Source of the DNA: a virus
Taxonomy: Duplodnaviria; Caudoviricetes
Length of the DNA: 55,032 nucleotides
IMG/VR virus record: IMGVR_UViG_3300045996_000451
Span: 1-55,032 of that record
Direction: 5' to 3' (one strand)
A program made the translations under genes and the position numbers. Shown here piece by piece: positions 2,915 to 38,623 of the stretch. Each line of letters starts with the position of its first letter. The stretch's first letter is position 1. Below the pieces are notes generated by a model that worked only from the letters and a program-made list of their open reading frames with translations, did no database searches and was not told the DNA's origin.

Positions 2915-2951
2915 GTTTTTACGGTACCGGAAACGCGGTTACATTTAACGG

Positions 2952-2980
2952 TTGCATAATACAGTATCGTGTGATACATT
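2952..2980 (+). promoter_or_regulatory. Sigma70-type rightward promoter with overlapping palindromic operator
   Basis: TTGCAT-17-TACATT; GTATCGTGTGATAC at 2964..2977. Confidence 0.65.
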
Positions 2981-3015
2981 GCTAAACACCATTCACAACG
3001 AAGGAGTAATAAACC

Positions 3016-5100: not shown

Positions 5101-5102
5101 CC

Positions 5103-5309: not shown

Positions 5310-5312
5310 CAC

Positions 5313-5341
5313 TTGACAGTTACGTTATCCGGTGATATATT
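5313..5341 (+). promoter_or_regulatory. Sigma70-type promoter for ssb with operator
   Basis: TTGACA-17-TATATT; TTATCCGGTGATAT at 5325..5338. Confidence 0.75.
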
Positions 5342-5379
5342 AATTCCTGTTTCAGTTATCAACTTAAGGAGTATAAAAC

Positions 5380-5943: not shown

Positions 5944-5948
5944 AGGTA

Positions 5949-5973
5949 TCCCGCCCTTCGGGGCGGGACTTTT
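5949..5973 (+). terminator. Rho-independent terminator
   Basis: TCCCGCCC-TTCG-GGGCGGGA followed by CTTTT. Confidence 0.85.
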
Positions 5974-5974
5974 C

Positions 5975-6254
5975 GGAAGGGGTTCTTAAGTTGATGCGGG
6001 GTTTCGGGCGATTTCCCAGCGGGCGCGTAAGAACCTCTTCCAAAAAGAACAATAGTGGTTGCCGGGGTTTCTCCTAGAGAGCCTTAAAGCCGGAACTGAA
6101 CCCCCGGCTCGGTAGCCCTGAATCGCAACGCGGATTTCCTTCCACAAGGCTTGTAGGGGAACCGCGACGCGCAACCCGTCCCGGCATAATTCATTAACGG
6201 GCAATTCAGGGAAGAGGTTTACGGACCCGGATACGTTGCTGCGTATCCGGGACC
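5975..6254 (+). ncRNA. Putative structured RNA / 5' leader of polA
   Basis: Four stems: 5975-5988/6028-6041, 6061-6071/6098-6108, 6116-6126/6201-6211 (multibranch), 6226-6235/6242-6251. Confidence 0.45.
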
Positions 6255-6274
6255 ACTTACATGAGGACAAGAAA

Positions 6275-15545: not shown

Positions 15546-15574
15546 ACTATAGCAGAATTTTTATCGTGTGATAT
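15546..15574 (-). promoter_or_regulatory. Extended -10 promoter with an operator over its -35 region
   Basis: TGcTATAGT on the minus strand; TTATCGTGTGATAT at 15561..15574. Confidence 0.55.
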
Positions 15575-15602
15575 ATAGTCCGAATGGTTGTTACCTTTTT
15601 CC

Positions 15603-16106
15603 TTAAGGGGTAAGTCCCTGTGCCCACGTCTTCGCACCGTCTAGTTCTATGGTTGAGTTTGAGCCTTCAATAAGGAGTTCCGTAGTCTCTCTTTCGAATC
15701 CTCTTTCCTCTTCAGAATATCGTTCCATCGCTCCAACAAGCTGGGCGAGGTCGTAAGAGGTTTCTTTAGGATTTCCGGGACTTGGGGCGGGGGTGGGCAG
15801 TAAGCTGCGACCGGGACGCTTTTGATTGTTCCGCAACTTGTCAGCGTAAGCAAGCAGACTACCGCGAGCGAGATTAATTTCATGGTCTGAGTCCTTCTTG
15901 TGTTGTTCATATTTCTGGTTCTTCAAACGTCCCTGTAAATCGGCTACTACCCCGACCGCGTTGGTTTCCGCTACGAACGCATCGAACTGGGATTTGGTTA
16001 TGTCAAGCTGCGTCCCCTGGTACCAGTACAAGCCGCTAACGATGGTCAGCAACAAGCAAACCGCCGCTAGTATATAGTGGATCGGATTTAGGCTTATTCC
16101 ACCCAT
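15603..16106 (-). CDS. Rz-like inner-membrane spanin
   Basis: N-terminal TM plus coiled coil; downstream of the endolysin; contains an embedded lipoprotein gene. Confidence 0.8.
   Translation of the reverse strand: MGGISLNPIHYILAAVCLLLTIVSGLYWYQGTQLDITKSQFDAFVAETNAVGVVADLQGRLKNQKYEQHKKDSDHEINLARGSLLAYADKLRNNQKRPGRSLLPTPAPSPGNPKETSYDLAQLVGAMERYSEEERGFERETTELLIEGSNSTIELDGAKTWAQGLTP
15647..15883 (-). CDS. Rz1-like outer-membrane spanin lipoprotein (embedded)
   Basis: MKLISLAVVCLLTLTSC lipobox and Pro-rich CPPPPQVP, in an alternate frame inside Rz. Confidence 0.8.
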   Translation of the reverse strand: MKLISLAVVCLLTLTSCGTIKSVPVAAYCPPPPQVPEILKKPLTTSPSLLERWNDILKRKEDSKERLRNSLLKAQTQP

Positions 16107-16164
16107 ACTACCCCCTTACCTGTTGAATTTAGATCGATTGTAGGGCTTTGTAGTCGCCTGATTT

Positions 16165-16482
16165 TTAAGCGTTTTCACGTGTTACGCCTTCGGCGGTAAT
16201 GACTATCTTGTATGGCTTTTCACCTTCCTTGTGACGCCGTAATACCACTTTCTTGAACCCGAGCGGTACCAACTGGCGTACCATATCCCGCTGGTGCGAC
16301 GGCTTGAAGTCGAAGTCGGTAGCCAGCTTTGCTTCGTATACCCCTGGTTCTGTCTGGTGGAGTAGGAACCCGTTTTCATACGGTGCGAACTCGCCCCATG
16401 TCGTCGGTACATCGTGTAGCCGCACCACCACGGTTAAGAACTCAAGCGTTACTGTTCCCTTAGTCTGCATACTTTCCCTCAC
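16165..16482 (-). CDS. Hypothetical protein in the lysis cassette
   Basis: ORF between endolysin and spanin. Confidence 0.6.
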   Translation of the reverse strand: MRESMQTKGTVTLEFLTVVVRLHDVPTTWGEFAPYENGFLLHQTEPGVYEAKLATDFDFKPSHQRDMVRQLVPLGFKKVVLRRHKEGEKPYKIVITAEGVTRENA

Positions 16483-16948
16483 ATATTGCGCGTTCTTCTG
16501 CGCGGCGTTTAACCAGGCCCGGGTATACCACCCCGCCCGACTTTTTGAATGCGTCGATACGTGCGCATGCTTCTGCGTACCGTTCGCTGTTAATCAGGTC
16601 TATGATGTTAGGGGGCTTACCGGGTTTTGCGGCATTGCAGAACCGGGCTACCCCGACGTTATATGTAAGGGATACATAGGCCGCGAACTCATGCTGGTGG
16701 AGTGGTACCTTCACGCAGTTTCGTACCCCTTGCGCGTAGACGGTATCGACTTCCTTCAGCAACCGCATCAAGGAGCGTTCGGGGGTTGTCTTGTCCCCCA
16801 TCTTTACGCCCGTAGTCGAACCGAACCCGATAGTAGGGACATCGCCCGGGACCGGGATCATAGCCGTACCGACGTACCCTTCATGTAAAGCAATCCCCAC
16901 CAATGTAGAAGCGGCAAGCAGAATTCCTTTTACGGCTTGCCTGTTCAT
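16460..16948 (-). CDS. GH24 lysozyme (endolysin), probably SAR type
   Basis: Weakly hydrophobic N-terminus, then HEG..GDVPTIGFGST, YNVG and GLVKRRAEE. Confidence 0.92.
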   Translation of the reverse strand: MNRQAVKGILLAASTLVGIALHEGYVGTAMIPVPGDVPTIGFGSTTGVKMGDKTTPERSLMRLLKEVDTVYAQGVRNCVKVPLHQHEFAAYVSLTYNVGVARFCNAAKPGKPPNIIDLINSERYAEACARIDAFKKSGGVVYPGLVKRRAEERAICEGKYAD

Positions 16949-17208
16949 ATCCTTGGTAGAAGCGTATCGTCAACCGGCGGCATAACATCCTTCGGCGCGA
17001 TAGTCGGCTGGTCCCATATCCGAGCGAACACGGCGGCACTGCCGCACAGTGCGGCGAGTCCGGCGAACATCCCCGGCGGGGCGCCGAACGCGTAATCGCT
17101 CATGGCCAGGAAGAACGCTTCCATTCCGCCAAGTACCGCCGCTGCGATAGCGAACCGTACGCTCCATGCTTTTTGTAATACTTCTTGCCAGTTCGAGATA
17201 AAGTTCAT
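16945..17208 (-). CDS. Holin-like two-TM protein
   Basis: NW..V...WSVR plus two TM helices, directly upstream of the endolysin. Confidence 0.7.
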   Translation of the reverse strand: MNFISNWQEVLQKAWSVRFAIAAAVLGGMEAFFLAMSDYAFGAPPGMFAGLAALCGSAAVFARIWDQPTIAPKDVMPPVDDTLLPRI

Positions 17209-17483
17209 GCGTCGTCCTTTTCTGTTAGTCTTTTTACGCAATCAAGTTTCAGTAGGAACTCTTCTTTTTTGTCGTCGCTTGACTCATCGCACGGGGGGCG
17301 ACGGTTTACCGCTGCCCTGCGGATTGGTTTGGTTTTCAGTGGTTCGAATAGGGGTGACTCGCGTACCTCTATTTCCTGCAGGGCGATTACGGGCAAGGGA
17401 TCCGGGGCGATGTTGTTGGGTTCCTTGGTACCGACGCCCGAACAGGCGACCAGTAAAATAGCGGATAGGCAATACTTAATCAT
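17205..17483 (-). CDS. Lipoprotein
   Basis: MIKYCLSAILLVAC lipobox. Confidence 0.65.
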   Translation of the reverse strand: MIKYCLSAILLVACSGVGTKEPNNIAPDPLPVIALQEIEVRESPLFEPLKTKPIRRAAVNRRPPCDESSDDKKEEFLLKLDCVKRLTEKDDA

Positions 17484-17764
17484 TTGCGGTGCCTATCCGC
17501 TATATAGTTCAACTTATCAATCGCTTGCTTATGGAACTCGTCTTGACCCCGTTCGAGGTTGGATAACCGCTGGTCGAACGTATCCAGGCGGGCGTCGCGC
17601 TTATCGTCGAGCCGCGCACTCGCGGATTGCTCTTGTTTGATTAATGCCTGGTCTGTATACATTTGGAACGCCGCGCCAGCGATGGCGATGAATGCGGACG
17701 TTAGAACCGGGGTAAACCACTTCGGAAACGCAAACCCTTTGTCTCCATCCTTATCATCGCGCAC
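17480..17764 (-). CDS. Single-TM coiled-coil protein
   Basis: TM helix followed by a heptad-rich segment. Confidence 0.6.
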   Translation of the reverse strand: MRDDKDGDKGFAFPKWFTPVLTSAFIAIAGAAFQMYTDQALIKQEQSASARLDDKRDARLDTFDQRLSNLERGQDEFHKQAIDKLNYIADRHRK

Positions 17765-17779
17765 GCCAGCACCGGACTA

Positions 17780-17962
17780 TTAGCAGGCGAACGGGAGAAC
17801 GGCCGCACCGCCGAAGGCGAGCAAAGCGACCACTACACCCAAGGCTATCCAGCCCGTAGCGGGATGTTTCACCCAGCGGACCAGTAACGAATCCATTTCT
17901 ACGTCTAATTTCTTGTCGAGTTCTTTCACTCGTGCTTTAACTTCGTCCGTGTTAATGTCCAT
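17780..17962 (-). CDS. Small membrane protein
   Basis: GGGGAGG RBS before MDINT; C-terminal TM. Confidence 0.6.
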   Translation of the reverse strand: MDINTDEVKARVKELDKKLDVEMDSLLVRWVKHPATGWIALGVVVALLAFGGAAVLPFAC

Positions 17963-18044
17963 GTGATACCTCCCCTGTCGTTGGTAACGTGTCATGTAAC
18001 CCTCTCTTGTCCGCGCATTTTATCACCGTAAAATTAATATATGT

Positions 18045-19262
18045 TTAGGCGGCGACCGATACCCATTCCGTTTTCTGTTCCGCTTTTGCCTTGTCTACGA
18101 ACACCGGCATACGGAAAGTAATCCGGTACTTCGGGTGCGTAATCCATAGGGCTTGTTGCGGCGGCTCGAAACCGAAGTTGTTGTTATACGCGTACTCGTC
18201 GTACCCTTTTAAAGAGCCGTTGACGATAACGCGGGAGTGGTGGATGTATTGGTGAAAATGTCCTAGGAGCATGGTATCGTAACCCATTCCCACTTGAGCG
18301 TTCCGTGAACGCTTCTTATGATCGCCGCGAATAATAGGACCGAGTGCGCCTATCATCCCGTCGCCGCCCCGGAACTGGTCGCCGTGGGTCATCAGGTAGC
18401 GGTGCCCGAAAATGCGGTAGTAGGCGTCCGGACCGTCGGGTATGAAGAACGTAATGCGCTTGTCGTTCTCGAAATGCTTAGCCAGGAAGGAATAAAGCAA
18501 CCAGTCGAACGACGTAGCGTGGCGGTCCTTGTTCCATATTTTATGGGTGTCGCGCCCGTGGTTCCCGGACACGCAAGGAAGGAACACGCGCCCGAAGTTA
18601 TCGGCCAGCGTATTGATAAGCCATACCAGGATCCCGTACAGTTCCAGCACGGTAGGCATGGTGTTTAATTCGTTGGTGGCGGTTAGCTCGTCATGGATAT
18701 TTCCCGAAATCATGTCGCCGCCGAGCGGACAAACGATACCTGGATAGTCCATCTTCGGGCTGATAATGCGCAGCAATTCGATTGCGGACGCGGCTAGGTT
18801 CTTCACCCGTTCCCGCATAATGCGCATGTTGAAATCATTCACATGATTAATTTGTGAAGGCTGGACGACTTCGCCCGTGTGCCAGTCCGAACAGAAGAGA
18901 GTCGGTACCCCGGGGGAAGCATGCTGGGACGACTCCTGTACCATCCAGTCGGGCGGTACAAGCTTAGTTACCCGGTTGTCCATGCCAATGATATGGGACC
19001 GTATGGCGTTCTCGTCCAGGGCGTTTTCTTGTGCCTTGGTCAATTCCGATTGCAGTAGCTTTATCTGCCGCTTGAGTTCCGCCGGATTGGAATCGCTTAC
19101 AATATTTTTGGATGGGGTAAGCCCCATTCCCTGTGCGTCTCTTACGCGCATCTTCAACGTAGATTGCGCTATACCGCTTTCTGCCGATGCTTTCGAATAG
19201 TTGTTATCGTTCTTCACGTAAAGGTCTAAGCTTTCTTGTGCTAGTGCTTTTGATGTCGGCAT
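18045..19262 (-). CDS. Calcineurin-like metallophosphoesterase with N-terminal HTH
   Basis: SDWH, GGDMISG, SGNHGR, THGD, GHFH. Confidence 0.85.
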   Translation of the reverse strand: MPTSKALAQESLDLYVKNDNNYSKASAESGIAQSTLKMRVRDAQGMGLTPSKNIVSDSNPAELKRQIKLLQSELTKAQENALDENAIRSHIIGMDNRVTKLVPPDWMVQESSQHASPGVPTLFCSDWHTGEVVQPSQINHVNDFNMRIMRERVKNLAASAIELLRIISPKMDYPGIVCPLGGDMISGNIHDELTATNELNTMPTVLELYGILVWLINTLADNFGRVFLPCVSGNHGRDTHKIWNKDRHATSFDWLLYSFLAKHFENDKRITFFIPDGPDAYYRIFGHRYLMTHGDQFRGGDGMIGALGPIIRGDHKKRSRNAQVGMGYDTMLLGHFHQYIHHSRVIVNGSLKGYDEYAYNNNFGFEPPQQALWITHPKYRITFRMPVFVDKAKAEQKTEWVSVAA

Positions 19263-19270
19263 TTACTACC

Positions 19271-20095
19271 TCACTCGTCTATGTAACTCGGCCACTGTCC
19301 TTGGTACTGGAATAGATCGCCCGTGCAATTCTGTAACCCCGGCCAAAAGCCGGCGTCTTCTATGTATGGGGTATTTTCTTGTATGATCCCCTTATCGCGT
19401 GCCAGGTACAGTTCAATGGCGTACGAGTTGTAGTTCAGGTACGACTGGTAGTAAACGCCCTGCGCGGCGACCGCACCGACACAGCGTACCGGAGCGGGCA
19501 CCGCTTTCCGGGTACCGTGATACATGACAATGTGCGCCACGTCGTAATATGTTTTGCCGCACCCCGCGCCCCATGTCCCGTCAGTACAACGGCCATACGG
19601 CGGCGTGTAGCTTTCCAGGTGTTCGACCAGTCCTACTTTACTGTATGCGTCATGCCCGGAATCAGTAACCGACGCGCCCGGGGTGTTCTGGCGGAACACA
19701 TCCATTTCGGCAATCGTGGCCAGCTTCGACAAGCCGCCGCCCGGGGACCACACCAGCCCGTAGTTAACGCCCGAGTTCTTGTACCCGAGCATGGTGTTAG
19801 GCTGGCACGGTACGGAACTGGGCATCCAATCGCCGGTTTCCTTTATGCTGCCATCGTCCCCGAAGAAAAGAACGGCGTATGTCTCCGTACACCAGGCTTC
19901 CGCTTTCCAGTATTGCTTACGCCACATGTATGTGTGTCCGGCTTGGTTCAGATTCATGTAACCGTAATAGAGCGAATCGACCGGCGTAGGCGCCGGTTGG
20001 AAAGTGTATTTGGCATAGCTGTTGCCGCTTGCCTTCCTGTATTCAATGACTTGGGTTTGCTGCGGGAAATATTGCTGAAGGTCTACTGAGTCCAT
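19271..20095 (-). CDS. Hypothetical protein (Tyr/Gly/Trp/Cys-rich)
   Basis: 274-aa ORF downstream of its own promoter. Confidence 0.7.
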   Translation of the reverse strand: MDSVDLQQYFPQQTQVIEYRKASGNSYAKYTFQPAPTPVDSLYYGYMNLNQAGHTYMWRKQYWKAEAWCTETYAVLFFGDDGSIKETGDWMPSSVPCQPNTMLGYKNSGVNYGLVWSPGGGLSKLATIAEMDVFRQNTPGASVTDSGHDAYSKVGLVEHLESYTPPYGRCTDGTWGAGCGKTYYDVAHIVMYHGTRKAVPAPVRCVGAVAAQGVYYQSYLNYNSYAIELYLARDKGIIQENTPYIEDAGFWPGLQNCTGDLFQYQGQWPSYIDE

Positions 20096-20145
20096 TTAAT
20101 GTCCGCGTGATTTGTTCTTGTAAAGTGTTACCGTAACGCACGCGA

Positions 20146-20174
20146 ACTATATGCGGGAATCATTAATATATCAA
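20146..20174 (-). promoter_or_regulatory. Leftward promoter, TTGATATAT family
   Basis: TTGATA-17-TATAGT. Confidence 0.7.
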
Positions 20175-20183
20175 GGGCAAAAG

Positions 20184-20213
20184 AAAAGCCGCACAGTGTT
20201 TATCTGTGCGGCT
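20184..20213 (-). terminator. Rho-independent terminator after the giant gene
   Basis: AAGCCGCACAG..CTGTGCGGCTT with a T-tract on the minus strand. Confidence 0.75.
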
Positions 20214-20291
20214 TATAATAGGGGGTAATGTTAGGTATTCCCCCTCCCCCACCTAACCCGAACCACGACCGGGTTTTCAATCGGAAAGGCG

Positions 20292-23200
20292 TTACTTCTT
20301 AGGCGGTCCCGCGACGAGTGCCGGGAGTATCCCCATGCCGTCTACCTTCCCTTCCTCTATCGCCATGATACCTTCGACTGTTGCGTTGATCTGTCCCGCG
20401 GGGTAGTGGAGTAGCGCGCCGCCTACCTGGTTCGCTGCTTTGAAAAATGCCATATCCGCGTCGCCCTGGTTCGCCTGTTGACCCAATTTATAAAGGTCGG
20501 CGAAGAACCGCAAGCCCGCCGGACCCTGGTACCCGAACCCCTGTCCCCCGGCCGCGACATCGATAGCCACGCCCATTTCGCGCAATAGCACCATTTGCCC
20601 GAACAGGAAGCCGAGTTGTTCGTGTCCCAGTTTCTTGGTAAGGCATTCCAGGTCTTCCCCGCATTCACCCTTCAACAGTTCCTTAAGTGCCACCGAGAAC
20701 AGAACGGGTACCGAGTTCAGTAGCACCAGGTCGGTAGCCAGCATCGCCACCTGTGAAGGCGACTTGAAACTGGTGCGGCGTACCGCTTCGACGTTCAGGT
20801 TATACGTCGCGGAAAAGTAGCTATAGAAATTGGTGAAAATCTTCTGTAGCGGGGATCCCCTTTGCACCTTGGCTAAGTCCTTCAGTTGCCCGCCGGATTG
20901 CGCATCGAGTACCGACTGGTCGGCAAGTGCGGCCGCCTGTTCTTCGATTGCCTTGCGCTCGTCCGCGCTCCCCGCGTTCTGTAGGTTCAATTGATCGGTC
21001 GCTTTCTCGTACGCACCCAGCCACGTAGGAATGTCCACAGTGCGCTGCATCTTGCCGATAAGGGTAAAGTAGCTCGCCTTGAACGCGCTAACCTTGTCGC
21101 CCGCCCGGATGGTATTCAGCACTTCGTTTATTTCCCGTTGCATGGTGCGGCCACGGTCGGTCATCAGCTTGGACTTGCTGTTCACGAATTCCCCGCTGGC
21201 AAGGGGCGACTTCATGAACTGGGCAACCCCGCGCGCCATGTACTTACCGCCGACTCGTACCCAGCTTTGAGCAAGTCCGGACGGTTGCAGTAATGCGGTC
21301 GTTACCCGCCAGCCCATACCCACCACCGTGGACCCGACCCGCAAACGGTTGATAGCGGTTTCCGTTCCGTTCTTCGCCGGCGCGTCGCCCGCCGCGATGT
21401 CCACCACGGTATCGCGCAGGGTGCGCAGGATTTCGGCGCCGTAGTGTTGGCGTATAGGGTTGTCGAGTGCTTTCAGTAACCGGTTCGAATCGATAAGCCA
21501 TTCTTGCCACGCTAGCCGGTGCGTCACTTCACTGACATGCTGGGCGATGGCGTTGTAACTCAACAAAATAGGCCGGTTCATTACCGCGTCCGCCCGAGCT
21601 TTGGTGAACCCGTTGCGCGTGGCCGAAGCGTTGAAGGCGCCCTTCATGCCCATGCGTAGGTCGGTCGCCGCTTCGAAGGATTCCGAACGGCTGGACAGTT
21701 CCGCGTCGTACTTGACCGGGAAGTACCCGCCCTTGTACGTGCCGTACTTCGTCTTGATTGGTGCCGGTTCGATCCATTCCGGTTCCACTCCGGTAAGCCG
21801 CCGCTCGAGTGCGGCTACCTGCGGTTTGAATTCGGCGATATAGTCCCATACCCCCTGGACGAAATTCCATTCCGCTTCCGTCAAGGTGTCGAGTACCGCT
21901 TCCGCTTGTTGAATGGATAGCGCGCGGTTGCCGGTAATCCCGCCGTCCATTAGCCGTTGGCGGTTGCCTTCATTGCCCCAGTTCATCGCGAACATAATCC
22001 GCTGTTCGTGAGTCATGGAAAGATTGGTACCGGGTACCATGCGCTTTTTGGCGTACAGGTTTCCGGTGACGGGGTTCGTGGTTATCTGCTTGAACAGTTT
22101 CGCTAGGGCTTCGGTAGCCGCGGCTTTCATTTGCGTTTCGTTGTCCCCGGCTTCGTTCATGGGCTTCAGGAAGAAGTTGAACATGAACCCGTTGTCCTTG
22201 CCCCCGTCCATTTCCCGCATGATGGAAGAGAACTTCCGGTGGTCGGCGGTCATCTGGCGCCACCATTTGCCCGCTATGCCTATGGCGTCGGTCGGGGTTG
22301 CCCGTTCCTCTACTGTCCGGTTCGCGTTCGCTTCGATGGCGTCCAGCCCTTCCAACACGATGGCATCGAACTCGCGCTGGTCCTTGGCGAGAAGTAGTTT
22401 TTTCTTCAGGCGTCCCAGGTGTTCGATTTGCTTTATCGAATCCGCGAACCCGCGCAATTCTTCGACCGTCATATTTTTGTATGACTTGAGTTTCGCCGCG
22501 TCCAGTAAGGCGGGGTCGATTGCCGGTTCGAAACCCATTGCTTCTTGTTGGCTTACCCAGTCTGCAAGGCTTTGCCGCTTGTCTATCTGGCTAAGGGTCT
22601 GCCCCTTGCGGAAATCGAACGGGCGCAACAGGTCGTCAATCTGTTCCATGTAGTCGATGTCCAACGCCTTGCGGGTGCCTTCCGTCTGGAACTTGGCGAC
22701 GTACCGGAGAATCTTTTCCACTTCCTTGGAAGCTTCCGCCGCTGCCTTGGCTAACCTGTTATTCAGTAACGCTGCCCGCTGTGCGGATACCGCCGCTTTG
22801 GGATCCTTCGCCGCGAGTTTCAAGGCTTCCTTGTTGGCTTTCGTTTCCGCGCGCTCGTATTGCGCGGGGCGCAAGTCGCGAACCTTCCGGCTGGCGATTG
22901 CGTTTTCCGCTGCGGCTTTCGCTGCCCGGTTTATTTGCGTCGCGGGAATCGGGGACTTGGCTAGAATCTTCAAGCCCGTGGCCATGAACTTGGCTCGTGC
23001 TTCGTTGTGTATCGCGGCTTCGGCTGCCCGTTCGATATCCTCTTCACTGGACAGTTCGCCGTGGCGTTCCAGCATGCGCTGGTCGGTCGTGCCTTCTATC
23101 TTGTCTTTTGCCGATTCCGAGTTCGCGAGGTCGAGTATCAACGACTCGCCGCTGGGGTACCCGAACATTTGCGCGGCGAGGTCCGGGCTTAGACCGTCCT

Positions 23201-26200
23201 TAGCCGTCATGCCGCGTAGCTTGGCACGGTCGAGGGTTACGGTACCCCCGGCGGGGAACAGTTCGTCCAAGGCCGCTGTGTCGAGTTTAAACCCGGCTTT
23301 GCTGCCCCTTGAAATTTCTGAAAGTGCCGCCGCTTCTTCTGGCTTTAATTCAAAGTTGAAAGTGAAACCCTGCTTAACCCCTTGGTCTTCGTAGTCCGGA
23401 TTGTTTACCCGCGGGTCGTTCTCCGGTAGGTCGGTATAGAACAATGGGAGGTCGGCGCGGTAGTCGGAAGCATAAGTACGGTCGGTGCTAACCCATCGCC
23501 CGTCGGTTCCGTTCCCGGCTGAACCACTATGGTAGACCCGCACCATTCCGGGAACTAGCGGCGGTTCTGTCTGCATGCCGGGTAGTTCCCCGGTCTTCAG
23601 GAACGTGCGCGCTACTTCGATAGGTTCGGCCATGACTTCGCGGCGTACTTCCTCTTCGACCGCTTTACGTTTCGCTTTAGCTTCGTTCTGCAATTCTTTG
23701 ATTACGCGTTCCTTCGCGTTACTCAACCACTTCATATCCCGAAGGCTACGGGCGGATAGGTCATCGATAGCTTGTTCGGTGGCTTGCTCGCCCAAGTCGA
23801 TATATTCCTGGAACTGCTTAGGTGTTACCCCTGCGTCTTCCGCCGTTTCGAATAACGGGGCGTATCCCCGCACCGCTTCCGTAGCCTTGATGGATTCTCC
23901 AGCGGCGATGAGGCGAGCGAAGATACCCCGCACTTCGTCGTTCAGTTTCCCGGCTAAAGGATTCTGTTTAAGAAACGCTTCTAACGACTTGTATACGTTC
24001 AACATCCACGCACGGAAACGCGCGAACACAGGTTGCAGTTCGGTGGTCGGGGCTTTCCCTTCCAGCATGTACCGTTCAAAGGATTGCGCCCACTGTTCAT
24101 GGTAGGGGCGTTTCTGGTCGAGGGACATGGACGCCCATACTTCTTCCGGGGTACGCCCGGGCGGAAGGTCGCCGGGGGTTCCCGGGTCGCCGCCTTGGTT
24201 CAGTATGTTGTTCTTGCTGGTATTGAACTTGCCTTTGTTACCCAACGCGCTTTTTACTTGCGTTTCTTCGAAAGGGATATAGACCGGTGCAACAACCCCG
24301 CCGCCTTTATTTTTCCCGGACCAATCGACAATGCCGTCGTAACCCAGTGATTTAAGAACCTCTGTTACCTTATCGGGTATGCTCGTCCATACATGGGATT
24401 CCTTGCCGTTCGCGTTATTGAACTCTTCCACCCAGTCGCGCATGGTGCGGTTGTTCTTGTCCCACGCGTCGGCGCCGCCTAACTTTGCCTTGCTCCGGTC
24501 GCGCTTTGCCGCGGCGTTCAACGCTTCGCCCACGCTCGCCGGAATATCGCTCGTGACTAGCGGGCTACGCATCGCGATATAGTTTTTATAGACGAACGGG
24601 AAAGATGAATGGGGCGAGTCGTACGTTACGTCCTTCATGGGCATGCCCGCTTCTTTCAGTACGCGCATGAACAGTTCTTCATTGTTAAACAGTGTTCCGC
24701 TGCTTAACCAGTCTTCCACCAACGCCCTTAGAGGATTGCCGCGACGGTCGTAATACGTGCGGGTCTGTTGGACGTTGTAGTCATAACTGCCGTTACCGGA
24801 AGTGTTGCCGTCTTCCGATATGACATTTTCCGCGTCATCGTCTAGACGAAGCGTAGGGGCAATCTCCGCTATGCGCGCCTTTGTTTCGGAATCCAGCGAG
24901 TACCACGCGCGGGCAATATCTACCGGGTTACGCGAACCGGGAACCTTAACCTTGAACCAGTTGGAGTAATCCTGGTCTTCGTTTGCAAGGCTGGTATCCA
25001 TCTTCCCGCTTGCGTAATTGGACGCAAGAGCGGGGCTACTGGTGTGGTACGCCATAGGGCCGCTGGTGGCGCGTTTTTTCAGGAACTTATCGCCTACGCG
25101 GTCGGGGCGTCCGGTGCCGTGGAAGGCTTCGACAACAATCTTTTCGCCCGTCTTGAACTGGTGGGTTTCAGCTTGCGCCGAAGTAACCAGCGGGGCGTTG
25201 TTACTCCACACCCGGAAATTCTCGTTCAGCGGCGACTGCCCCAAGTCCCCGCCCCGGGTACCGCCGTCTGTGTTCTCGTTCCCGGTTATGCCGAACCATT
25301 CCAGCGTCTTGCGGAAGTCGTCCTTTATCTGTTGCGGGGCTTCCGGTCGGCTTGCCAGGTCTGCCAGGGCTTCAAGGTAGAAGTGCGCGCCTTCGTGCAA
25401 GGTGGATGAAAGGTCGGCGCCCTTCAGTAGCGAAATGGTGAACGTGTCGGGGTTGTACCCGGCGCGGTTTTCCTGGTTCAGAAGAGTATCGCCCGCGAAC
25501 TGTCCATTATTACCAATGGCTGATTTAATCTGATCGGGGCTGAAGGCTATCACTTCGTAGAAGTCCGCACTTTCAGGGTCCGCGTATTCGTTCGGCACTA
25601 TTACCCCGTCGTGTCCCGCGGCTAGCAGTTCTTCGGTTATTGCTTTCGTTTCTTCCGCATTGGTCGCCGCTACCCGACCTTTAGGCCAGTAGTAAGGATT
25701 TTTCAGGGATACGTAAACGGGCATTACGTTGGCCCCGCCGGACTCCGCAAACTTATCTTTTTTGGATTCGTAGGTGGCGTACCCGCTGGCCGCATGCGTG
25801 TCCGCCGTAAGGTATATCCCCTTGCCGTACCATCCGGAATCTTTCTGTCCGAATTTCTTTAAGTCGAACTTATCGAAAGTCTTATCGGTCCCGTGGAATA
25901 GCCTTAGGGGGTTTCCTTCCGCGTCCACTACCTTGGAATCCCCGAACCACGCTTTGAACTCCGGGGTTTCTGTTTGCGGTATCATGGGCGACTGCGCCAA
26001 TTCCCGCATCGCGTCCAGCTTTTCGCCGTTGCGCTCAAGCAATGCCACCTTGTCGATGGTAGGCTGATCCCATAGCACGTAGTTGTATGTGCCCTTCCCG
26101 TCCGCGCGCGAGCCGCCGTCCAGGTAGCGGTTTCCGACTATGCCGATAGACGCAAGGTATTCGGAAGCTGCTTTATCATGCCTATTCACTTCTGAAGGTG

Positions 26201-28946
26201 AAAAACTCCTTTGCCCCGGATTCGCTTTTTCCGCCTGTAGTTCCTTGATGTATGAGTATATTTCCTTGCCGTCCATGTATTTCGGGTCGGGCAATTTAAT
26301 ACCCTTCAAGGCTTCCCGAACTTCAGGCGTCTGTTCGCTTAACGGTTTATCCCAATCCAACAGGCGCGGCAATACGGAATCGGGGATGTCGAGGGAGTAG
26401 AGGGAACCTTCATTTTCGGGTTCCCCCCTCTTCCGTCGCCCTAATTGGTCTAGGCTTTCTTTCGTCAGCTTAATGAAACTGTCCCGCCTATCGCTTTGCG
26501 GCATGGCTTCATAGCCCGATAGCCTTTTCTCTAACCCCGCGATGGCTTCGTCCAATCCGCCAAACTGGTTTATGAAGTTATCGGCTTGCGCTGCGGAAGC
26601 GGTAAGTTTTTCCCTGTACTCTCTTGCTACCCCCTGATTCTCAGCACTGTACCACCCCCATCCGAACGCTTGCGCGCCCTCGCCCGTGCCCATCTTGTCG
26701 AGCCGGGGGCGCCCGTGCGGGAATCCCGGTTCCGGTGCCCATACGTGCGGGGTACCGTGGAATACGGACTGGTTGAATACTTGGGGTTCCCTGCGCATTT
26801 CCGGTTCGCCTAGTGCGTTTATGGTCCGCCCGGTCTTGACGAACCCTAGCGATTCATAAAACGTTATCAGCTTGCCGGTACTGGTTTTCTTGTCCAGCGA
26901 AGACGCGTCCAAGGTAACGGCTTTCCCTTCCCGGTCGGCTTGCTGTAGGAACTGTACCATTGCTTGCCGTGCGCTGCCCTTGCCGCGTTTGGCTTGCGGG
27001 GTACGTACAGAGTAAATCTTTAGCGCGCCGTCTTCCATTCCATAGGATAAGGTGCTGTCCCCTACTTTCGCGTCCTTGATTCCGGGCGAGAAATCGAACG
27101 TGTCTTCGCCCTGGTTCAAAATATTCCCGGTATTCATCGGCGCGAAATTCAACGGCATTTGCTTGTACAGTTCCGAAGGCGTAATCCCCATCTTCGCCGC
27201 GTTGACGGCGTAGAATTCCCGGAACGGCACAGCGTACGCCGCGTTCACTTCGGACGTAAACCGCCCTGCCTTGTTCATTTGTTCCAGTATGGTGTCGTGG
27301 ACTTTTTGTACATCGGCTTTATATTCTTCCGTGGTACCCGCGTCTGCCATCAGGCTCGCGGCTTGCGCACTCAAGTCGTCTTTCTGTGACTGGTAGAACT
27401 GCTGGGCTTCCGTGTATGTCAAGCCGTCCGGGGACGCGCGCAAGTGGTCGATGATTCCTTTTTCGACATCGGTACCCGCCACATACGTAGCGTAGTCCGC
27501 CAAGCTGATACGCACTTCGCCGTTTGTCTTCGCCGCTTCGCCTAGCTGCTGGGCGACTTCCGGCATTTTCCGTTCAATCTCAGCCATGTTAACGCCGGAC
27601 TGGTTGAGTACATTTTCCAGTGTTTTACCGTCCACGTAAACGTCCGACAGGTTCCCGTCTTCCGACATGGTGGATATGAAATCGTGGAAGGCTTGCGGGT
27701 CGCGCTCGCGCAGCGGGTGCTTGCCGGCCATTTCGCCCAATTGCTGAATGGTCAAGTGGTTTTCTTCCGCGCGCTGGGCTTTACCCAAGTCGGTGGCCAG
27801 TGAACGCTGCAGGGTTTCCATGCCCTTGGCTACCGCCTTGGCGCCGCCTACCTGGATGGACCCGCCTACCGCCGTGGCGATAAGGGTTTCGAGTGCGGCT
27901 TCCGGGCGTTCTGCCAGGTAATCGCTGAACGGCTTTTCCGGGTTCAGGGTCGCCCACTTGTCCAAGTCCTGCAGGGCGGTTGCCGCCTGTTCGCCGACGC
28001 CTTCCCGAATCATGAACTCGGTAGCGGTACGCACCAGTCCCGTTTTCATTGTCAAGTTCTTAACGAGGTTCCCCATCGGGAACAGTTCGGTAGCGTATTC
28101 GATGACGCCCTGTTTCGTGGCGTGGATCAGGGCTTCGTTCAGTGGTAGCCCCTTGTCGGTCGCTTCCCCGAGTGCGTTACCTGCGGTAATGCCGGATAGC
28201 CCCGCCAGGATGGGCACAGGCGAGCCGCTAGCCACGGATAGGGGCAACGCCATCAGTGTGGTGGCTGCGGACTCCACGCCGCTGTATACACCCCGTTCCA
28301 GTACACTCAAACCGCTCTGGTTCGGTCGCAAGTCTTTCGCCATTCCCAATTGGCGGTTACGGAAATCCGCCGCCGTGCTTCGCAGCATTTCGCCCACGTC
28401 CGGCGAACCGATGGTATCGGCTAGCGGCTTCGTGGCGTTGACTGACAATATCGAACCGGCCGCCTGTACGAAACTCCAAATAGCCGCGTTCGCGTTCGGC
28501 AATGCGGCGGCCGCGGATCCGGCGAGGTTCTTACCGACTTGCAGGGCGTCGCCCGCGAGTGACGGCAACCCGCGGGCGGTGGTTTCAATCTCGCCCAGGG
28601 TGAGTATGTCCTTACCAGCTACCGCTGCGTAATTGGGGTTCTGTGCCCACTTCGCCAGAGCGGGGTACTTCGTCATGATGTCCTGTGCGCGCGTGTTCTT
28701 CAGGAACGCCTGTTCCTCTGCCTGTGCGGTCGGCGGGAGTATGGCGGCGGGCATGCCCAGTTCGCCGGACAACTTGCGCCGCTTGGCTTCGTCTACCGGG
28801 TTCGCGGTGGCCGCGCGCTGCAGGTTCATGCCGAGCGTATCCAGTGCCGGGTTCACCGGGGCGGGTACGGCGGGAAGCGGTGCGGGGGGTAATCCTTTGC
28901 GCTGGTTGTCGATGTCGTCCAGAATCTTTTCGTAGTCGTATGGCAA
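20292..28946 (-). CDS. Giant internal virion/ejection protein with polyvalent effector domains (GNAT, three ART-PolyVal, zincin-like HExxH)
   Basis: Follows the tail tube and ejection genes; RGKGSA..FYESLGF GNAT; FHGT...GxY...GxDG ART repeats; LHEGAH...HEQ. Confidence 0.85.
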   Translation of the reverse strand: MPYDYEKILDDIDNQRKGLPPAPLPAVPAPVNPALDTLGMNLQRAATANPVDEAKRRKLSGELGMPAAILPPTAQAEEQAFLKNTRAQDIMTKYPALAKWAQNPNYAAVAGKDILTLGEIETTARGLPSLAGDALQVGKNLAGSAAAALPNANAAIWSFVQAAGSILSVNATKPLADTIGSPDVGEMLRSTAADFRNRQLGMAKDLRPNQSGLSVLERGVYSGVESAATTLMALPLSVASGSPVPILAGLSGITAGNALGEATDKGLPLNEALIHATKQGVIEYATELFPMGNLVKNLTMKTGLVRTATEFMIREGVGEQAATALQDLDKWATLNPEKPFSDYLAERPEAALETLIATAVGGSIQVGGAKAVAKGMETLQRSLATDLGKAQRAEENHLTIQQLGEMAGKHPLRERDPQAFHDFISTMSEDGNLSDVYVDGKTLENVLNQSGVNMAEIERKMPEVAQQLGEAAKTNGEVRISLADYATYVAGTDVEKGIIDHLRASPDGLTYTEAQQFYQSQKDDLSAQAASLMADAGTTEEYKADVQKVHDTILEQMNKAGRFTSEVNAAYAVPFREFYAVNAAKMGITPSELYKQMPLNFAPMNTGNILNQGEDTFDFSPGIKDAKVGDSTLSYGMEDGALKIYSVRTPQAKRGKGSARQAMVQFLQQADREGKAVTLDASSLDKKTSTGKLITFYESLGFVKTGRTINALGEPEMRREPQVFNQSVFHGTPHVWAPEPGFPHGRPRLDKMGTGEGAQAFGWGWYSAENQGVAREYREKLTASAAQADNFINQFGGLDEAIAGLEKRLSGYEAMPQSDRRDSFIKLTKESLDQLGRRKRGEPENEGSLYSLDIPDSVLPRLLDWDKPLSEQTPEVREALKGIKLPDPKYMDGKEIYSYIKELQAEKANPGQRSFSPSEVNRHDKAASEYLASIGIVGNRYLDGGSRADGKGTYNYVLWDQPTIDKVALLERNGEKLDAMRELAQSPMIPQTETPEFKAWFGDSKVVDAEGNPLRLFHGTDKTFDKFDLKKFGQKDSGWYGKGIYLTADTHAASGYATYESKKDKFAESGGANVMPVYVSLKNPYYWPKGRVAATNAEETKAITEELLAAGHDGVIVPNEYADPESADFYEVIAFSPDQIKSAIGNNGQFAGDTLLNQENRAGYNPDTFTISLLKGADLSSTLHEGAHFYLEALADLASRPEAPQQIKDDFRKTLEWFGITGNENTDGGTRGGDLGQSPLNENFRVWSNNAPLVTSAQAETHQFKTGEKIVVEAFHGTGRPDRVGDKFLKKRATSGPMAYHTSSPALASNYASGKMDTSLANEDQDYSNWFKVKVPGSRNPVDIARAWYSLDSETKARIAEIAPTLRLDDDAENVISEDGNTSGNGSYDYNVQQTRTYYDRRGNPLRALVEDWLSSGTLFNNEELFMRVLKEAGMPMKDVTYDSPHSSFPFVYKNYIAMRSPLVTSDIPASVGEALNAAAKRDRSKAKLGGADAWDKNNRTMRDWVEEFNNANGKESHVWTSIPDKVTEVLKSLGYDGIVDWSGKNKGGGVVAPVYIPFEETQVKSALGNKGKFNTSKNNILNQGGDPGTPGDLPPGRTPEEVWASMSLDQKRPYHEQWAQSFERYMLEGKAPTTELQPVFARFRAWMLNVYKSLEAFLKQNPLAGKLNDEVRGIFARLIAAGESIKATEAVRGYAPLFETAEDAGVTPKQFQEYIDLGEQATEQAIDDLSARSLRDMKWLSNAKERVIKELQNEAKAKRKAVEEEVRREVMAEPIEVARTFLKTGELPGMQTEPPLVPGMVRVYHSGSAGNGTDGRWVSTDRTYASDYRADLPLFYTDLPENDPRVNNPDYEDQGVKQGFTFNFELKPEEAAALSEISRGSKAGFKLDTAALDELFPAGGTVTLDRAKLRGMTAKDGLSPDLAAQMFGYPSGESLILDLANSESAKDKIEGTTDQRMLERHGELSSEEDIERAAEAAIHNEARAKFMATGLKILAKSPIPATQINRAAKAAAENAIASRKVRDLRPAQYERAETKANKEALKLAAKDPKAAVSAQRAALLNNRLAKAAAEASKEVEKILRYVAKFQTEGTRKALDIDYMEQIDDLLRPFDFRKGQTLSQIDKRQSLADWVSQQEAMGFEPAIDPALLDAAKLKSYKNMTVEELRGFADSIKQIEHLGRLKKKLLLAKDQREFDAIVLEGLDAIEANANRTVEERATPTDAIGIAGKWWRQMTADHRKFSSIMREMDGGKDNGFMFNFFLKPMNEAGDNETQMKAAATEALAKLFKQITTNPVTGNLYAKKRMVPGTNLSMTHEQRIMFAMNWGNEGNRQRLMDGGITGNRALSIQQAEAVLDTLTEAEWNFVQGVWDYIAEFKPQVAALERRLTGVEPEWIEPAPIKTKYGTYKGGYFPVKYDAELSSRSESFEAATDLRMGMKGAFNASATRNGFTKARADAVMNRPILLSYNAIAQHVSEVTHRLAWQEWLIDSNRLLKALDNPIRQHYGAEILRTLRDTVVDIAAGDAPAKNGTETAINRLRVGSTVVGMGWRVTTALLQPSGLAQSWVRVGGKYMARGVAQFMKSPLASGEFVNSKSKLMTDRGRTMQREINEVLNTIRAGDKVSAFKASYFTLIGKMQRTVDIPTWLGAYEKATDQLNLQNAGSADERKAIEEQAAALADQSVLDAQSGGQLKDLAKVQRGSPLQKIFTNFYSYFSATYNLNVEAVRRTSFKSPSQVAMLATDLVLLNSVPVLFSVALKELLKGECGEDLECLTKKLGHEQLGFLFGQMVLLREMGVAIDVAAGGQGFGYQGPAGLRFFADLYKLGQQANQGDADMAFFKAANQVGGALLHYPAGQINATVEGIMAIEEGKVDGMGILPALVAGPPKK

Positions 28947-37693: not shown

Positions 37694-38623
37694 TTAACGG
37701 GTTACTTTCGACCGCGCCGTAATCAGGTCGCGGTACCGTGCCTGATTCTTTTCCGCGTTCGCGCCTTTCCAGTATTCGCTGGTCTGATCCCCCATCCAGC
37801 CTTCAAGCTTGGATATCTCGCTTTCCATGGCTTGCTGTGCGTTCGCCCCGCTGCCCGGTACCACGGTGGCCATGGGGTTGAGTTCGCGTGCCATTGTCGC
37901 CAACCATTGCAGGGTCGGCACATGGTTGCCGAGCGGCGAACCGTCGGCTAAACGGGCGCCGTTCAATTGCTCCTTGACGCCCTGCGGGGCCCCGTTCAGC
38001 ATGCCGTTAATTAGGTTCAGGTTCAGTTCTACTTCGGAACCCCATACTTCGGGACTCTTCAGGGCGGCGTCCGCATTTACATGCGATTCGTGATCGGCTA
38101 TCGCGCGGGCTTGTATGTCCTTCTCGCGCAGTTCCAAATGAGCGGCCGCCAGCTTGTTGACCTGTGCGGGGGTCAAGTTCTCTTCGTGCGCTACCTTGGT
38201 GAATGCGTCAACGTAGGGCTTATCCGCTTCGCCCAGTACGATACCGTCGGGCAGGTTGAATTCATACGCGTCCGGGGATTCCGGTATCCCGTTCAGTTCA
38301 CGGTAGGCGGCGACTTCTTCCGGCGTTGCGTCCTTGCCCGGGCGTGCGCTCATCGAGCCGATTTTGTTCTGCGCTTCCACGCCGGCGCGGATTGCTTCCT
38401 GCAGCGTGCCGTATCGTTCCAGGCGTTTCAATACCTTGGTGTCTTCGCCCGCGAGCTTCGCCCGCATGCTTGCCCAATCATCGACCGCGGGTGCGGCGGG
38501 CGCGGCTGCTGGTGCGGGGGATAGGGTTGTGGGTGCTGCGGTGGTGTTCGGTGCTGCTACCGGTGCCGCGTTATTTTCCAGGGTGACGGTTTCATCCGTG
38601 CTGGTGGTGTTTTCTTCTGCCAT
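37694..38623 (-). CDS. Capsid scaffolding/assembly protein
   Basis: Ala/Pro-rich N-terminus, G.PE.PD.Y motif; lies between portal and capsid. Confidence 0.75.
   Translation of the reverse strand: MAEENTTSTDETVTLENNAAPVAAPNTTAAPTTLSPAPAAAPAAPAVDDWASMRAKLAGEDTKVLKRLERYGTLQEAIRAGVEAQNKIGSMSARPGKDATPEEVAAYRELNGIPESPDAYEFNLPDGIVLGEADKPYVDAFTKVAHEENLTPAQVNKLAAAHLELREKDIQARAIADHESHVNADAALKSPEVWGSEVELNLNLINGMLNGAPQGVKEQLNGARLADGSPLGNHVPTLQWLATMARELNPMATVVPGSGANAQQAMESEISKLEGWMGDQTSEYWKGANAEKNQARYRDLITARSKVTR

Follow-up and report, generated by a model that had tools for sequence, protein, structure and literature searches.

Modules and junctions of the giant gene

The stretch analysed here, called the window throughout, is from IMG/VR virus record IMGVR_UViG_3300045996_000451 (Duplodnaviria; Caudoviricetes; 55,032 nucleotides (nt), positions 1 to 55,032). 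On its minus strand lies a giant gene (20292..28946, TTG start), a real open reading frame (ORF) as had been claimed, for a protein of 2884 amino acids (aa). This protein, hereafter the window protein, residue i of which occupies window positions 28946-3i+1..28946-3(i-1), is predicted to be the large internal virion (ejection) protein of a podovirus of the BPP-1/epsilon15 type, that is, of the IVP-D (protein D of the internal virion proteins), T7 gp16 or BPP-1 Bbp10 kind, and its presence in the virion is likewise a prediction. The initial annotation had described a polyvalent ejection protein, a description that the domains, synteny and Bbp10 homology support, with effector cassettes bounded by (L/F)xQ tripeptides. 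The latter observation is real, and it becomes stronger once the motif is restated as hydrophobic-x-Gln at the ends of modules. Below, proteins of the sequence collection are numbered P00xx and the loci compared L0xx, and all features of the giant gene are on the minus strand.

The chain begins with an N-terminal module (residues 1-612, 27111..28946) that ends in PMNTGNILNQ, with BLAST ends piling up at 590-620, and that contains an LPD22 domain (residues 43-127, 28566-28820; Pfam 46.4 bits vs a cut-off of 28.6). It is followed by a GNAT cassette (residues 613-726, 26769..27110). Although this segment stays below the Pfam gathering score (best family Acetyltransf_CG, 20.4 bits vs 30, with four more GNAT families sub-threshold), the GNAT fold that had been proposed is borne out on a structural model. 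The AlphaFold2 (AF2) model of residues 600-1000, built from a 13-row alignment (A5) and with a mean predicted local distance difference test score (pLDDT) of 67, holds a confident domain at ~620-720 (pLDDT about 76-88). Foldseek returned 11 matches to it at E <= 0.001 (best E 1.5e-4), all of them GNAT-type acetyltransferase chains including AcrVA5. The best structural match is AcrVA5 itself (6iuf_B; VIA Z 13.2, 93 of 95 residues, rmsd 2.1, 22% identity), which makes this a mini-GNAT of AcrVA5 type, and the comparison with spermidine acetyltransferase gave a VIA Z of 11.3. The sequence contains R-G-K-G-S-A, which we take to be the acetyl-CoA-binding position of GNATs. The model suggests that the cassette is a candidate for a delivered, protein-acetylating counter-defence enzyme.

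Three modules had been called ADP-ribosyltransferases (ARTs), and two of them stand on firm ground. ART2 (residues 986-1158, 25473..25991) scores 85.9 bits against Pfam ART-PolyVal (PF18760, matched over 1008-1150), far above the cut-off of 31.2, and ends in the tail GNNGQFAGDTLLNQ, the Pfam model stopping 8 residues short of Q1158. ART3 (residues 1238-1584, 24195..25235), which is nested in the HExxH domain described below, scores 36.0 bits against the same cut-off and aligns to ART2 with an hhalign probability of 99.7%. The ART1-type module (residues 727-985, 25992..26768) is ART-like at its start (VFHGTPH...GWGWYSAE) and continues with a helical insert; in hhalign its opening ~50 residues match the start of ART2 (96%, E 2.6e-9, only 41 columns), but the module has no Pfam match and its remaining part was not matched to an ART. 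No ART fold appeared for it in the fold-match lists, which GNAT matches filled. The sole non-GNAT row was 9k3a_B from the cyanophage A4 pre-ejectosome (VIA Z 9.8, 156 residues, rmsd 3.8), matched at its residues 1419-1600 and without sequence similarity; from the residue numbering we read this chain as the large ejection protein gp27. ART1-type modules have a nearly invariant Asn (A5 column N356) where ART2 has Glu (YNYV vs YEVI).

The domain search and the AF2 modelling proposed with the initial annotation thus yielded ART-PolyVal and GNAT fold matches, and the LPD22 domain, two ART-PolyVal domains above the Pfam cut-off, a GNAT fold and a gene placed within the phage structural module are together what is expected of a polyvalent protein. 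Sequence searches of the PDB with the whole window protein, the ~90-aa unit described below and profile A5 returned nothing at useful E-values. Cassettes in relatives also include PBECR1, MuF_C-like and unnamed domains.

Each of the six junction coordinates given in the initial annotation is the last base of a Gln codon (Q612, Q726, Q985, Q1158, Q1237 and Q1584). The N-terminal module ends at ILNQ 609-612, followed by G613 (27111..27122), and the GNAT cassette at VFNQ 723-726, followed by S727 (26769..26780), with the Gln that ends it (Q127 of alignment A5) nearly invariant. LAQ 983-985, followed by SP (25992..26000), closes ART1, and LLNQ 1155-1158, followed by E1159 (25473..25484), closes ART2. 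The nested ART3 cassette is flanked upstream by LGQ 1235-1237, followed by SP (25236..25244), and downstream by ILNQ 1581-1584, followed by GGDPGTPG (24195..24206). A seventh copy, VLNQ 446-449 followed by S (27600..27611), had been missed; it lies inside the N-terminal module, its Gln is kept in 91 of 114 relatives, no homology breakpoint falls there, and it may be structural. At Q612 the corresponding count is 104 of 114 aligned N-terminal modules, a figure that alone proves little because columns 449, 467 and 556 of the same module are conserved too.

Stretches of pLDDT <50 in the AF2 model of residues 600-1000 include 600-615, 723-726 and 973-1000, which are three of the junctions and lie between confident domains. 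In the model of residues 1159-1900 the junctions at 1237 and 1584 are of low confidence, as is all of ART3, which the alignment did not cover.

A strict pattern, [ILV][LF]NQ[GSE], chosen after the data had been seen, occurs five times in the window protein against a shuffle mean of 0.03 (0 of 2000 shuffles reach 5), and none was found in 19 other window ORFs (8815 aa). The loose form [LF]xQ is weak alone, with 23 occurrences vs a mean of 15.6 (sd 3.6), a count that 70 of 2000 shuffles reach. A longer ART-tail motif, DPxxPxI[LR]x[QS], gave about 220-230 matches against 3-12 in shuffles; it was dropped as a junction model, since 222 of 256 matches follow ARTs and only one of the seven sites of the window protein was found by it.

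Relatives were drawn from several searches. The first comparison set held 128 proteins, namely 119 from the collection (out of the 120 best of 1115 matches) and nine phage proteins. A profile scan of IMG/VR with the second half of the HExxH domain gave 460 relatives, from which 80 loci were kept; the two IMG/VR scans made brought 82 loci (L011-L092), 70 of them with a complete giant ORF. Once near-duplicates had been removed, 194 of 211 proteins remained.

BLAST ends and starts against the window protein pile up at 590-620, 720-729, 980-999, 1150-1159 (90 ends), 1220-1249, 1580-1609 (52 ends in the bin 1580-1589), 1780-1799 and 1880-1889. Gln frequency at fixed offsets from these pile-ups was 0.11-0.12 vs a background of 0.049, a signal that is weak because BLAST ends stop short of the variable linkers. 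Ten global alignments of the window protein with close relatives contain 31 gaps of >=50 aa. Nine are clean gains or losses of a cassette with both ends <=7 aa from a listed junction, so that whole-cassette events do map to the motifs, as the initial annotation would have it: GNAT is absent (610..724) in P0007, L015 and L020, ART2 (986..1159) in P0005 and P0006, and the first HExxH half together with ART3 (1153..1579) in P0002, while insertions occur at 724 in P0003 (197 aa) and at 1151 and 1157 in L020 (325 and 265 aa). A further gap, the absence of the nested cassette with its linkers in L017 (1221..1600), lies 16 aa out on each side. Eight gaps involve the ~90-aa unit and are >200 aa from any junction, and 13 fall inside ART3, ART1 or GNAT, at places where the alignment had to pair cassettes that are non-homologous or divergent.

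The same conclusion is reached from the modules themselves, for one downstream module can be found behind differing upstream modules and always after x-Gln. The VFHGTPH-type module follows ..NPNDPNILNQ (then SVFHGTPH) after an ART, ..NPFDPNILNQ (then SVFHGTPH) after another domain, and ..GDVLNQ (then AVFHGTPH) directly after the N-terminal module; NILNQ is also found after a MuF_C-like domain or GNAT, and further endings in front of this module are LEQ, FDQ, LDQ, ASQ, LWQ, LYQ and LFQ.

Among the 194 non-redundant relatives, 45.8% of 415 linker intervals (median 10 aa) hold a hydrophobic-x-Gln, compared with 17.1% among size-matched random windows (200 draws; sd 1.8, maximum 21.4), and control patterns ending in Glu, Asn, Lys or Ser were not enriched in these intervals. 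A chance origin of the motif was rejected on the shuffle counts and these linker-interval counts.

The site in front of the HExxH domain is the clearest case. When that domain was located with a hidden Markov model, the motif was found upstream of it in 133 of 135 unique 37-aa contexts, behind modules that are very diverse (single-linkage clustering, which merged most of these upstream modules into one family, was uninformative). Naming the residues before the junction P4 to P1 and the one after it P1', the logo of 128 contexts has Gln at P1, L (74), F (30) or I (15) at P3, often I (37) at P4, and a free P2. Even in four cassette-free relatives the N-terminal module is joined to the HExxH domain by a single such site, e.g. 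ANALNQ followed by EARGKLSF. A conserved site motif at domain boundaries, as a self-processing polyprotein should have, is therefore present.

The HExxH domain and its nested cassette

The initial annotation had placed an HExxH segment between two ARTs. Its motif, HEGAH (residues 1184-1188, 25383-25397), is indeed the single HExxH copy in the window protein and is invariant in its relatives, but the segment is only half of a domain that ART3 interrupts. The first half of this zincin-like domain spans residues 1159-1237 (25236..25472; pLDDT 73-96 for 1159-1224) and includes an adaptor ending in DLGQ; the second half, YHEQWAQSFERYMLEGKAP..., spans residues 1585-1792 (23571..24194; alignments A1 and A3; pLDDT ~85-94 for 1599-1793). 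Sequences matching window residues 1159-1220 and 1602 onward adjoin each other in BPP-1, SR18, CP2, phage AF and DC33, and the halves are likewise contiguous in two Manatee Spring podoviruses and many IMG/VR loci (e.g. L018). ART3 and its linkers are therefore nested between the HExxH helix and the block YHEQ(F/W)A..FE.Y..EGKAP. In a 53-row alignment the H, E and H of the motif (H26, E27, H30) are invariant in 53 of 53 rows, as are the downstream H458, E459 and E466, so that both an HExxH helix and a downstream Glu helix are conserved, as in zincin-like domains. Residues 700-1000 of Bbp10 have been profile-matched to a zincin-like family (PMC3650047), and zincin-like domains in polyvalent proteins are described as bearing variable inserts between their two catalytic helices and as present also in the N4 virion RNA polymerase (vRNAP) (Iyer et al. 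2017, PMC5512222). The split arrangement fits that description.

Comparison of empty and filled insertion sites is informative with respect to the motif. Where the halves adjoin, the sequence is ..L(D/E)WFGV-x-DL..W.., and in none of the 15 examples listed does it contain x-Gln. Where it is filled, the upstream side carries the adaptor ..GITGNE..(D/T)L(G/A)Q followed by S (the window protein, L013, L014 and L020), and the downstream side ends in ..LNQ followed by GGDPGTPG in three of four readable ends (the window protein, L013 and L019, of which L019 was readable at its downstream end only). A motif on both flanks of the insert and none at the empty site is what release by cutting would need.

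The ending of ART-PolyVal domains also varies with the protein in which they are found. The HExxH domain is present in 138 of the 194 proteins, the other 56 being polyvalent proteins found through their ARTs. Carriers with the domain have ART-PolyVal tails ending in Gln 106 times and in Ser twice, whereas tails in carriers without it end in Ser 68 times, in Gln four times, and otherwise in K (7), E (7), R (6), D (5) or G (5). On a FastTree phylogeny of 184 ART cores from 94 proteins, the tail being excluded, independent pairs differing in carrier type changed tail in the same direction in ~9.6 cases, in the opposite direction in 0 and not at all in 6.3 (sign test, median p 0.002).

Carriers without this HExxH domain often show ART-PolyVal tails ending in DPxNPDIR(F/Y)S (P0029, P0037, P0041, P0054, P0058, P0064, P0078 and others), P0078 alone having about ten tails of this type, and the ending may be a second junction code. 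Another HExxH in a typical hydrophobic context occurs in 30 of these 56 carriers, because of which different protease/site pairs are possible.

Candidate proteases other than this domain are scarce. The 29 window ORFs scanned against PHROGs and/or Pfam contained no protease family apart from a weak match to phrog_458 (protease, E 4.1e-5) in a 309-aa ORF between portal and capsid (37694..38623); this ORF is better matched by phrog_3742, of unknown function, and has no Pfam family. Zincin-like domains have been proposed to process polyvalent proteins (PMC5512222). Being invariant, in the same chain and with no other protease family found in the 29 window ORFs scanned, the HExxH domain is the best protease candidate. 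Complex prediction, in which both HExxH halves were paired with a peptide of 51 aa that spans Q612, gave no verdict (score 0.00, mark 0.32) and is evidence neither way. Autoproteolysis by a Ser, Thr or Cys nucleophile following the site was rejected, given that P1' includes G, E, P and D.

Gene neighbourhood and a second insertion site

The window holds a podovirus structural module, whose minus-strand genes begin with the large terminase (40993-42555) and continue with portal (38931-40580), capsid protein (35919-36749), tail tube A (34437-35066), tail tube B (31784-34444), internal virion protein (30886-31665), a lysozyme-type protein of 613 aa (29123-30964) and the giant gene, which thus follows tail tube A/B and the smaller internal virion proteins, as IVP-D genes do. 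Homology agrees with position: by tblastn the window protein has 40.2% identity to BPP-1 Bbp10 (E 1e-173, over 59%), and Bbp10 is a homologue of T7 IVP-D according to Hardies et al. 2016 (PMC4819975), who also report that internal virion proteins host cytoplasm-bound domains such as the N4 vRNAP. The label of giant ejection protein is well founded on this synteny and homology. The conserved C-terminal ejection-protein body comprises residues 1882-2884 (20295..23303; phrog_9880 and tblastn), phrog_9880 matching residues 1602-2871. The tblastn search matched 68 phage records, none covering 80% of the query; the best, besides BPP-1, were Caulobacter phages SR18, BL94, Jess A and RapA, which are 38.3% identical to the query across 70% of its length. 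A nucleotide search of the giant gene against phage records gave no match.

Several neighbouring genes deserve mention. An ORF of 274 aa directly after the giant gene (19271-20095, minus strand), where relatives have tail fibre or spike genes, matched no PHROG or Pfam family. Two minus-strand ORFs, 36910-37623 and 42534-43148, share the C-terminal family phrog_26577 (E 4e-24 and 9e-27), the latter additionally matching endonuclease VII (phrog_1035); both lie between structural genes and resemble homing-endonuclease insertions. Beyond the terminase gene, also on the minus strand, are a Laminin_G_3 (concanavalin-like) protein (43186-44520) and a GH5 cellulase-like protein (47583-49154), which may be receptor-binding or depolymerase proteins set apart from the tail genes. 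Among the loci compared, the 39-kb Limnohabitans phage DC33 (L007, PQ492659.1) has Inoviridae in its taxonomy line and yet encodes a 3125-aa Bbp10-type ejection protein; the placement looks like a labelling error.

A ~90-aa unit (PLVPGMVRVYHSG...SEISRG; residues 1793-1881, 23304..23570) had been proposed as a fourth, degenerate ART. The sequence is there, but it has no x-Gln flanks and only weak leads to ARTs. Not one segment at 70% coverage was found for it among the 128 homologues of the first set, and relatives 85% identical on both sides lack it; 69 other proteins (225-1990 aa) carry it at 58-75% identity, in varied positions mostly between Ala/Pro-rich linkers, with ends that are not x-Gln and with the recurring consensus ..EPPVPxGMVRVYHSG....LKEISR.. 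It has no Pfam match and no PDB sequence match, and hhalign to ARTs reached at most 13% (70-row alignment; ART2, 24 columns). Its AF2 pLDDT is <50, the alignment not having covered the unit, and its nearest language-model neighbours include the small ART families Tox-ART-HYD1 (0.88) and Arr-ms (0.87), both below the lead level of 0.9. To judge from its sequence it looks like an unnamed, very conserved mobile mini-domain separate from the cassettes, and an ART nature is a lead only. Insertions have a second hot spot where this unit sits, at residues 1788/1882 of the window protein, the point at which the long helix that follows the HExxH domain gives way to the C-terminal body; P0022 and Vibrio phage 1.185.O have inserts of 130-180 aa there. 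Not every insertion follows the junction rule, therefore, since the insert of the window protein at 1788/1882 lacks x-Gln flanks.

Proposed processing sites, rival explanations and known systems

Our tentative reading of the junction motifs is that the protein is processed at them by proteolysis, probably through its own HExxH domain. As a whole this seems to us quite plausible, if a little short of probable, and we favour it over an uncut linker element, its main rival, with a pure recombination joint third. An ejection protein would here have turned carrier for enzymes delivered with the DNA. Its basic architecture, as seen in the cassette-free relatives, is N-terminal module, hydrophobic-x-Gln, HExxH domain and helical ejection body; cassettes sit at the hydrophobic-x-Gln junction or in a loop of the HExxH domain, each bringing its own hydrophobic-x-Gln end. 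A cut after Gln, with L, F or I at P3, would detach each enzyme, and the N-terminal module as well, from the membrane-spanning ejection body, whether inside the capsid or once ejection has taken place, and the likeliest protease would be the invariant HExxH domain of the same polypeptide. A bolder form of the idea, which we entertain with somewhat less conviction, is a true bacteriophage polyprotein: a self-freed magazine of exchangeable anti-host enzymes with a built-in HExxH protease reading hydrophobic-x-Gln, other lineages having other protease/site pairs (e.g. I-R-x-Ser).

A number of points weigh against processing. As to the motif, the loose (L/F)xQ tripeptide fails as a delimiter, being equally dense inside and outside the cassette region (1.59 vs 1.59 per 100 aa), and other Gln columns of the N-terminal module (449, 467, 556) are conserved; position, and not the tripeptide alone, must therefore carry the signal. 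No motif is present in 54% of the 415 linker intervals, many of which, having been called automatically, are probably not true module borders. P1' is broad (G 48, then E, S, T, Q, N, D and P in the 128 contexts), and the nested cassette of L020 ends in ..VEVQ followed by LPPGR, at odds with the P3 rule. The sequences moreover share descent, and the patterns were defined with the data already in view.

As to the candidate protease, the HExxH domain has no Pfam model, and the fold search with its structural model did not confirm a zincin fold, the best Foldseek E being 2.6, with anthrax lethal factor chains at E ~5 over 73 columns and VIA rows covering only one long helix (548-621). Cuts at both ART3 flanks would also nick the domain between its catalytic helices. 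The co-variation was read from a FastTree phylogeny of a short domain, and crossing over within the tail, with the last residues coming from the recipient, would give the same pattern of carrier and tail.

The literature searched held no direct evidence of cleavage for any family member: virion proteomics of the giant protein was not found in the accessible text of PMC3863775, PMC3974807, PMC8143317 or the OANV1 preprint, and a search for work on how internal proteins of podoviruses are processed yielded only a paper on a giant myovirus. The capsid and cement proteins of BPP-1 are reported as uncleaved (PMC3863775), so that there is no sign of a head-maturation protease in the group. Finally, the N4 vRNAP is a relative in which an HExxH subdomain occurs together with a C-terminus like that of IVP-D (PMC4819975, PMC13434306), and it is reported to be packaged unprocessed (PMC5512222).

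The N4 protein, with the same kind of HExxH subdomain and yet packaged unprocessed (PMC5512222, PMC13434306), also argues for the main rival, a conserved linker element that stays uncut: a short strand or cap ending each module, which would serve independent folding, ordered unfolding and threading through the tail channel, or docking in the pre-ejectosome. Such an element would accommodate the 222 of 256 longer-motif matches that follow ART-PolyVal, where much of the signal could be domain tail, and the conserved Q449, inside a module and without a breakpoint. What was observed comprises the modules, their boundaries, the motif with its conservation at the peptide level, its position in linkers of low confidence and the way it co-varies with the HExxH domain; that cutting takes place, at which exact site, when and by which protease, we infer. 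Against it, the Pfam ART-PolyVal model ends 8 residues before Q1158, and modules unrelated to one another finish in this way (the N-terminal module, GNAT, a MuF_C-like domain, ITPEMR..PLFQ and the adaptor preceding the nested cassette). The motif lies in residues of pLDDT <50 and is not packed on a domain, and a structural cap is not expected to switch between Gln and Ser with the HExxH domain of its carrier. Inserts flanked by motifs beside motif-free empty sites are likewise less well accounted for by a domain tail. On balance we think an uncut linker rather unlikely.

Recombination surely moves the cassettes, and the question is whether the motifs are nothing but its joints, that is, short sequences shared by module ends through which cassettes are swapped in frame and whose conservation would reflect history and not peptide function. 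It is exactly at the motifs that cassettes come, go or are exchanged, the motif lies in the overlap of consecutive BLAST matches (e.g. q3-725 and q720-1167 in P0003), and the tail crossover mentioned above would account for the agreement of the last residues with the carrier. Up to 10 residues are common to ART tails (DPNNPNILNQ), or ~30 nt of possible homology between relatives, so that the longer tails (DPxxPxILxQ) could be a source of homology; two junctions of the Q-then-SP type share 12 of 15 nt.

The codons speak otherwise. At P4 and P3 the seven copies of the window protein read GTA CTC, ATT TTG, GTA TTC, GAA TTG, CTT CTG, GAC TTG and ATA CTG, with differing Leu, Ile and Val codons, and the five NQ-type copies have only AAC CA(G/A) in common, the P2 codon being GCG in LAQ and GGG in LGQ. 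AAC and CAG are simply the giant gene's commonest Asn and Gln codons, and the microhomology joints offered by the initial annotation as an alternative mechanism are weak accordingly. Across relatives the middle residue is free (LNQ, LEQ, FDQ, LTQ, LGQ, FYQ). Because Gln and the hydrophobic residue are kept while the middle residue and the codons vary, a mechanism acting on the peptide fits better: the conserved signal, as read from these alignments, is a peptide property (P3 L, F or I; P2 any; P1 Gln) and not a DNA one. A joint left as a by-product of recombination does not account for a Gln that persists in 133 of 135 contexts, although overall identity is 25-40%, and that is kept even where there is no cassette; this needs direct selection on the protein. 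Pure recombination joints are in our estimation improbable.

Cleavage of the sites by a host protease or by another phage protein, such as the 309-aa product of 37694..38623, we regard as very unlikely: that ORF's weak protease match speaks for it, as does a P1-Gln specificity, which is more familiar among serine and cysteine proteases than among zincins, but the better match of the same ORF is to a family of unknown function, it has no Pfam family, no further protease family turned up in the 29 window ORFs, the BPP-1 capsid proteins are uncut, and it is with the HExxH domain of its own chain that the Gln ending co-varies.

The general view of polyvalent proteins is that they bring in counter-defence enzymes along with the invading DNA, and how a 300-kDa fusion becomes a set of working enzymes has been a guess since 2017, which a defined junction signal and a candidate protease in the same chain make testable. 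If the bolder polyprotein idea is true, the junction motif would be a portable "cut here" code, and any new cassette would work once inserted. Confirmation of the signal would make the mature products of thousands of giant phage proteins predictable, would allow effector domains to be delimited, including unnamed ones such as the ~90-aa unit, and would show how, by a rule found in nature, phage ejection proteins could be designed to take up cargo. Should the chain stay uncut, the motif would still be a reliable marker of domain boundaries for the family.

Among the closest known systems are the polyvalent proteins themselves (Iyer, Burroughs, Anand, de Souza and Aravind 2017, PMC5512222), which, like the window protein, have many effector domains in each virion-delivered polypeptide and likewise contain ART-PolyVal, LPD22 and GNAT, with PBECR1 in BPP-1. 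Processing was proposed there; the present analysis adds a junction signal, rules for its position and co-variation with an HExxH subfamily. A description of the site motif was not found in the accessible text of PMC5512222, its alignment supplements excepted, or of PMC9503650, and the junction strings did not occur in the literature searched. The general idea of self-processing polyvalent proteins is thus in print, and a defined site motif was not found in that literature.

Bbp10 of BPP-1, the IVP-D homologue, occupies the same gene position as the window gene, after the tail-tube and internal-virion genes. It has one cassette, PBECR1, a predicted RNase (residues 620-775; 4321-4788 of L003; Pfam 37.6 bits vs 27.6), as against four to five in the window protein, of which one is nested, and it keeps the sites (QQFDQ followed by E; KFYQ followed by GGG). 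Its record is annotated as "crystallin beta/gamma motif-containing". The coliphage N4 virion RNA polymerase gp50, as reported, is like the window protein both giant and ejected, and the enzyme embedded in it lies upstream of an HExxH subdomain, its C-terminus being IVP-D-like; it differs in that it is reported to be packaged and to work uncut. With the anti-CRISPR AcrVA5 (PDB 6iuf), a mini-GNAT, only the fold of the GNAT cassette is shared.

Other systems resemble the junctions in form. In T4, Alt, an ADP-ribosyltransferase packaged in the head and injected, and the internal proteins are cut by the prohead protease gp21 at (L/I)-x-Glu, a site that likewise follows a hydrophobic-x-acidic/amide pattern and leaves the middle residue free. 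In T4 the prohead protease is separate, as are the genes, and the residue is Glu, whereas the window protein is one polypeptide with Gln and with its candidate protease in the chain. Viral polyproteins have 3C and 3C-like sites that end in Gln before Gly, Ser or Ala, read by chymotrypsin-like proteases; these share with the present junctions the P1 Gln, a hydrophobic residue upstream, a small residue as the commonest P1' and a place between domains, and differ in that scans of the window proteins found no chymotrypsin-like domain. VENN in CdiA, the pre-toxin junction motif of polymorphic toxins, marks cassette exchange before the C-terminal toxin and is, like the hydrophobic-x-Gln motif, a short conserved mark where variable cassettes swap; it stands at one junction, whereas in the window protein every module, including the nested one, ends with the motif.

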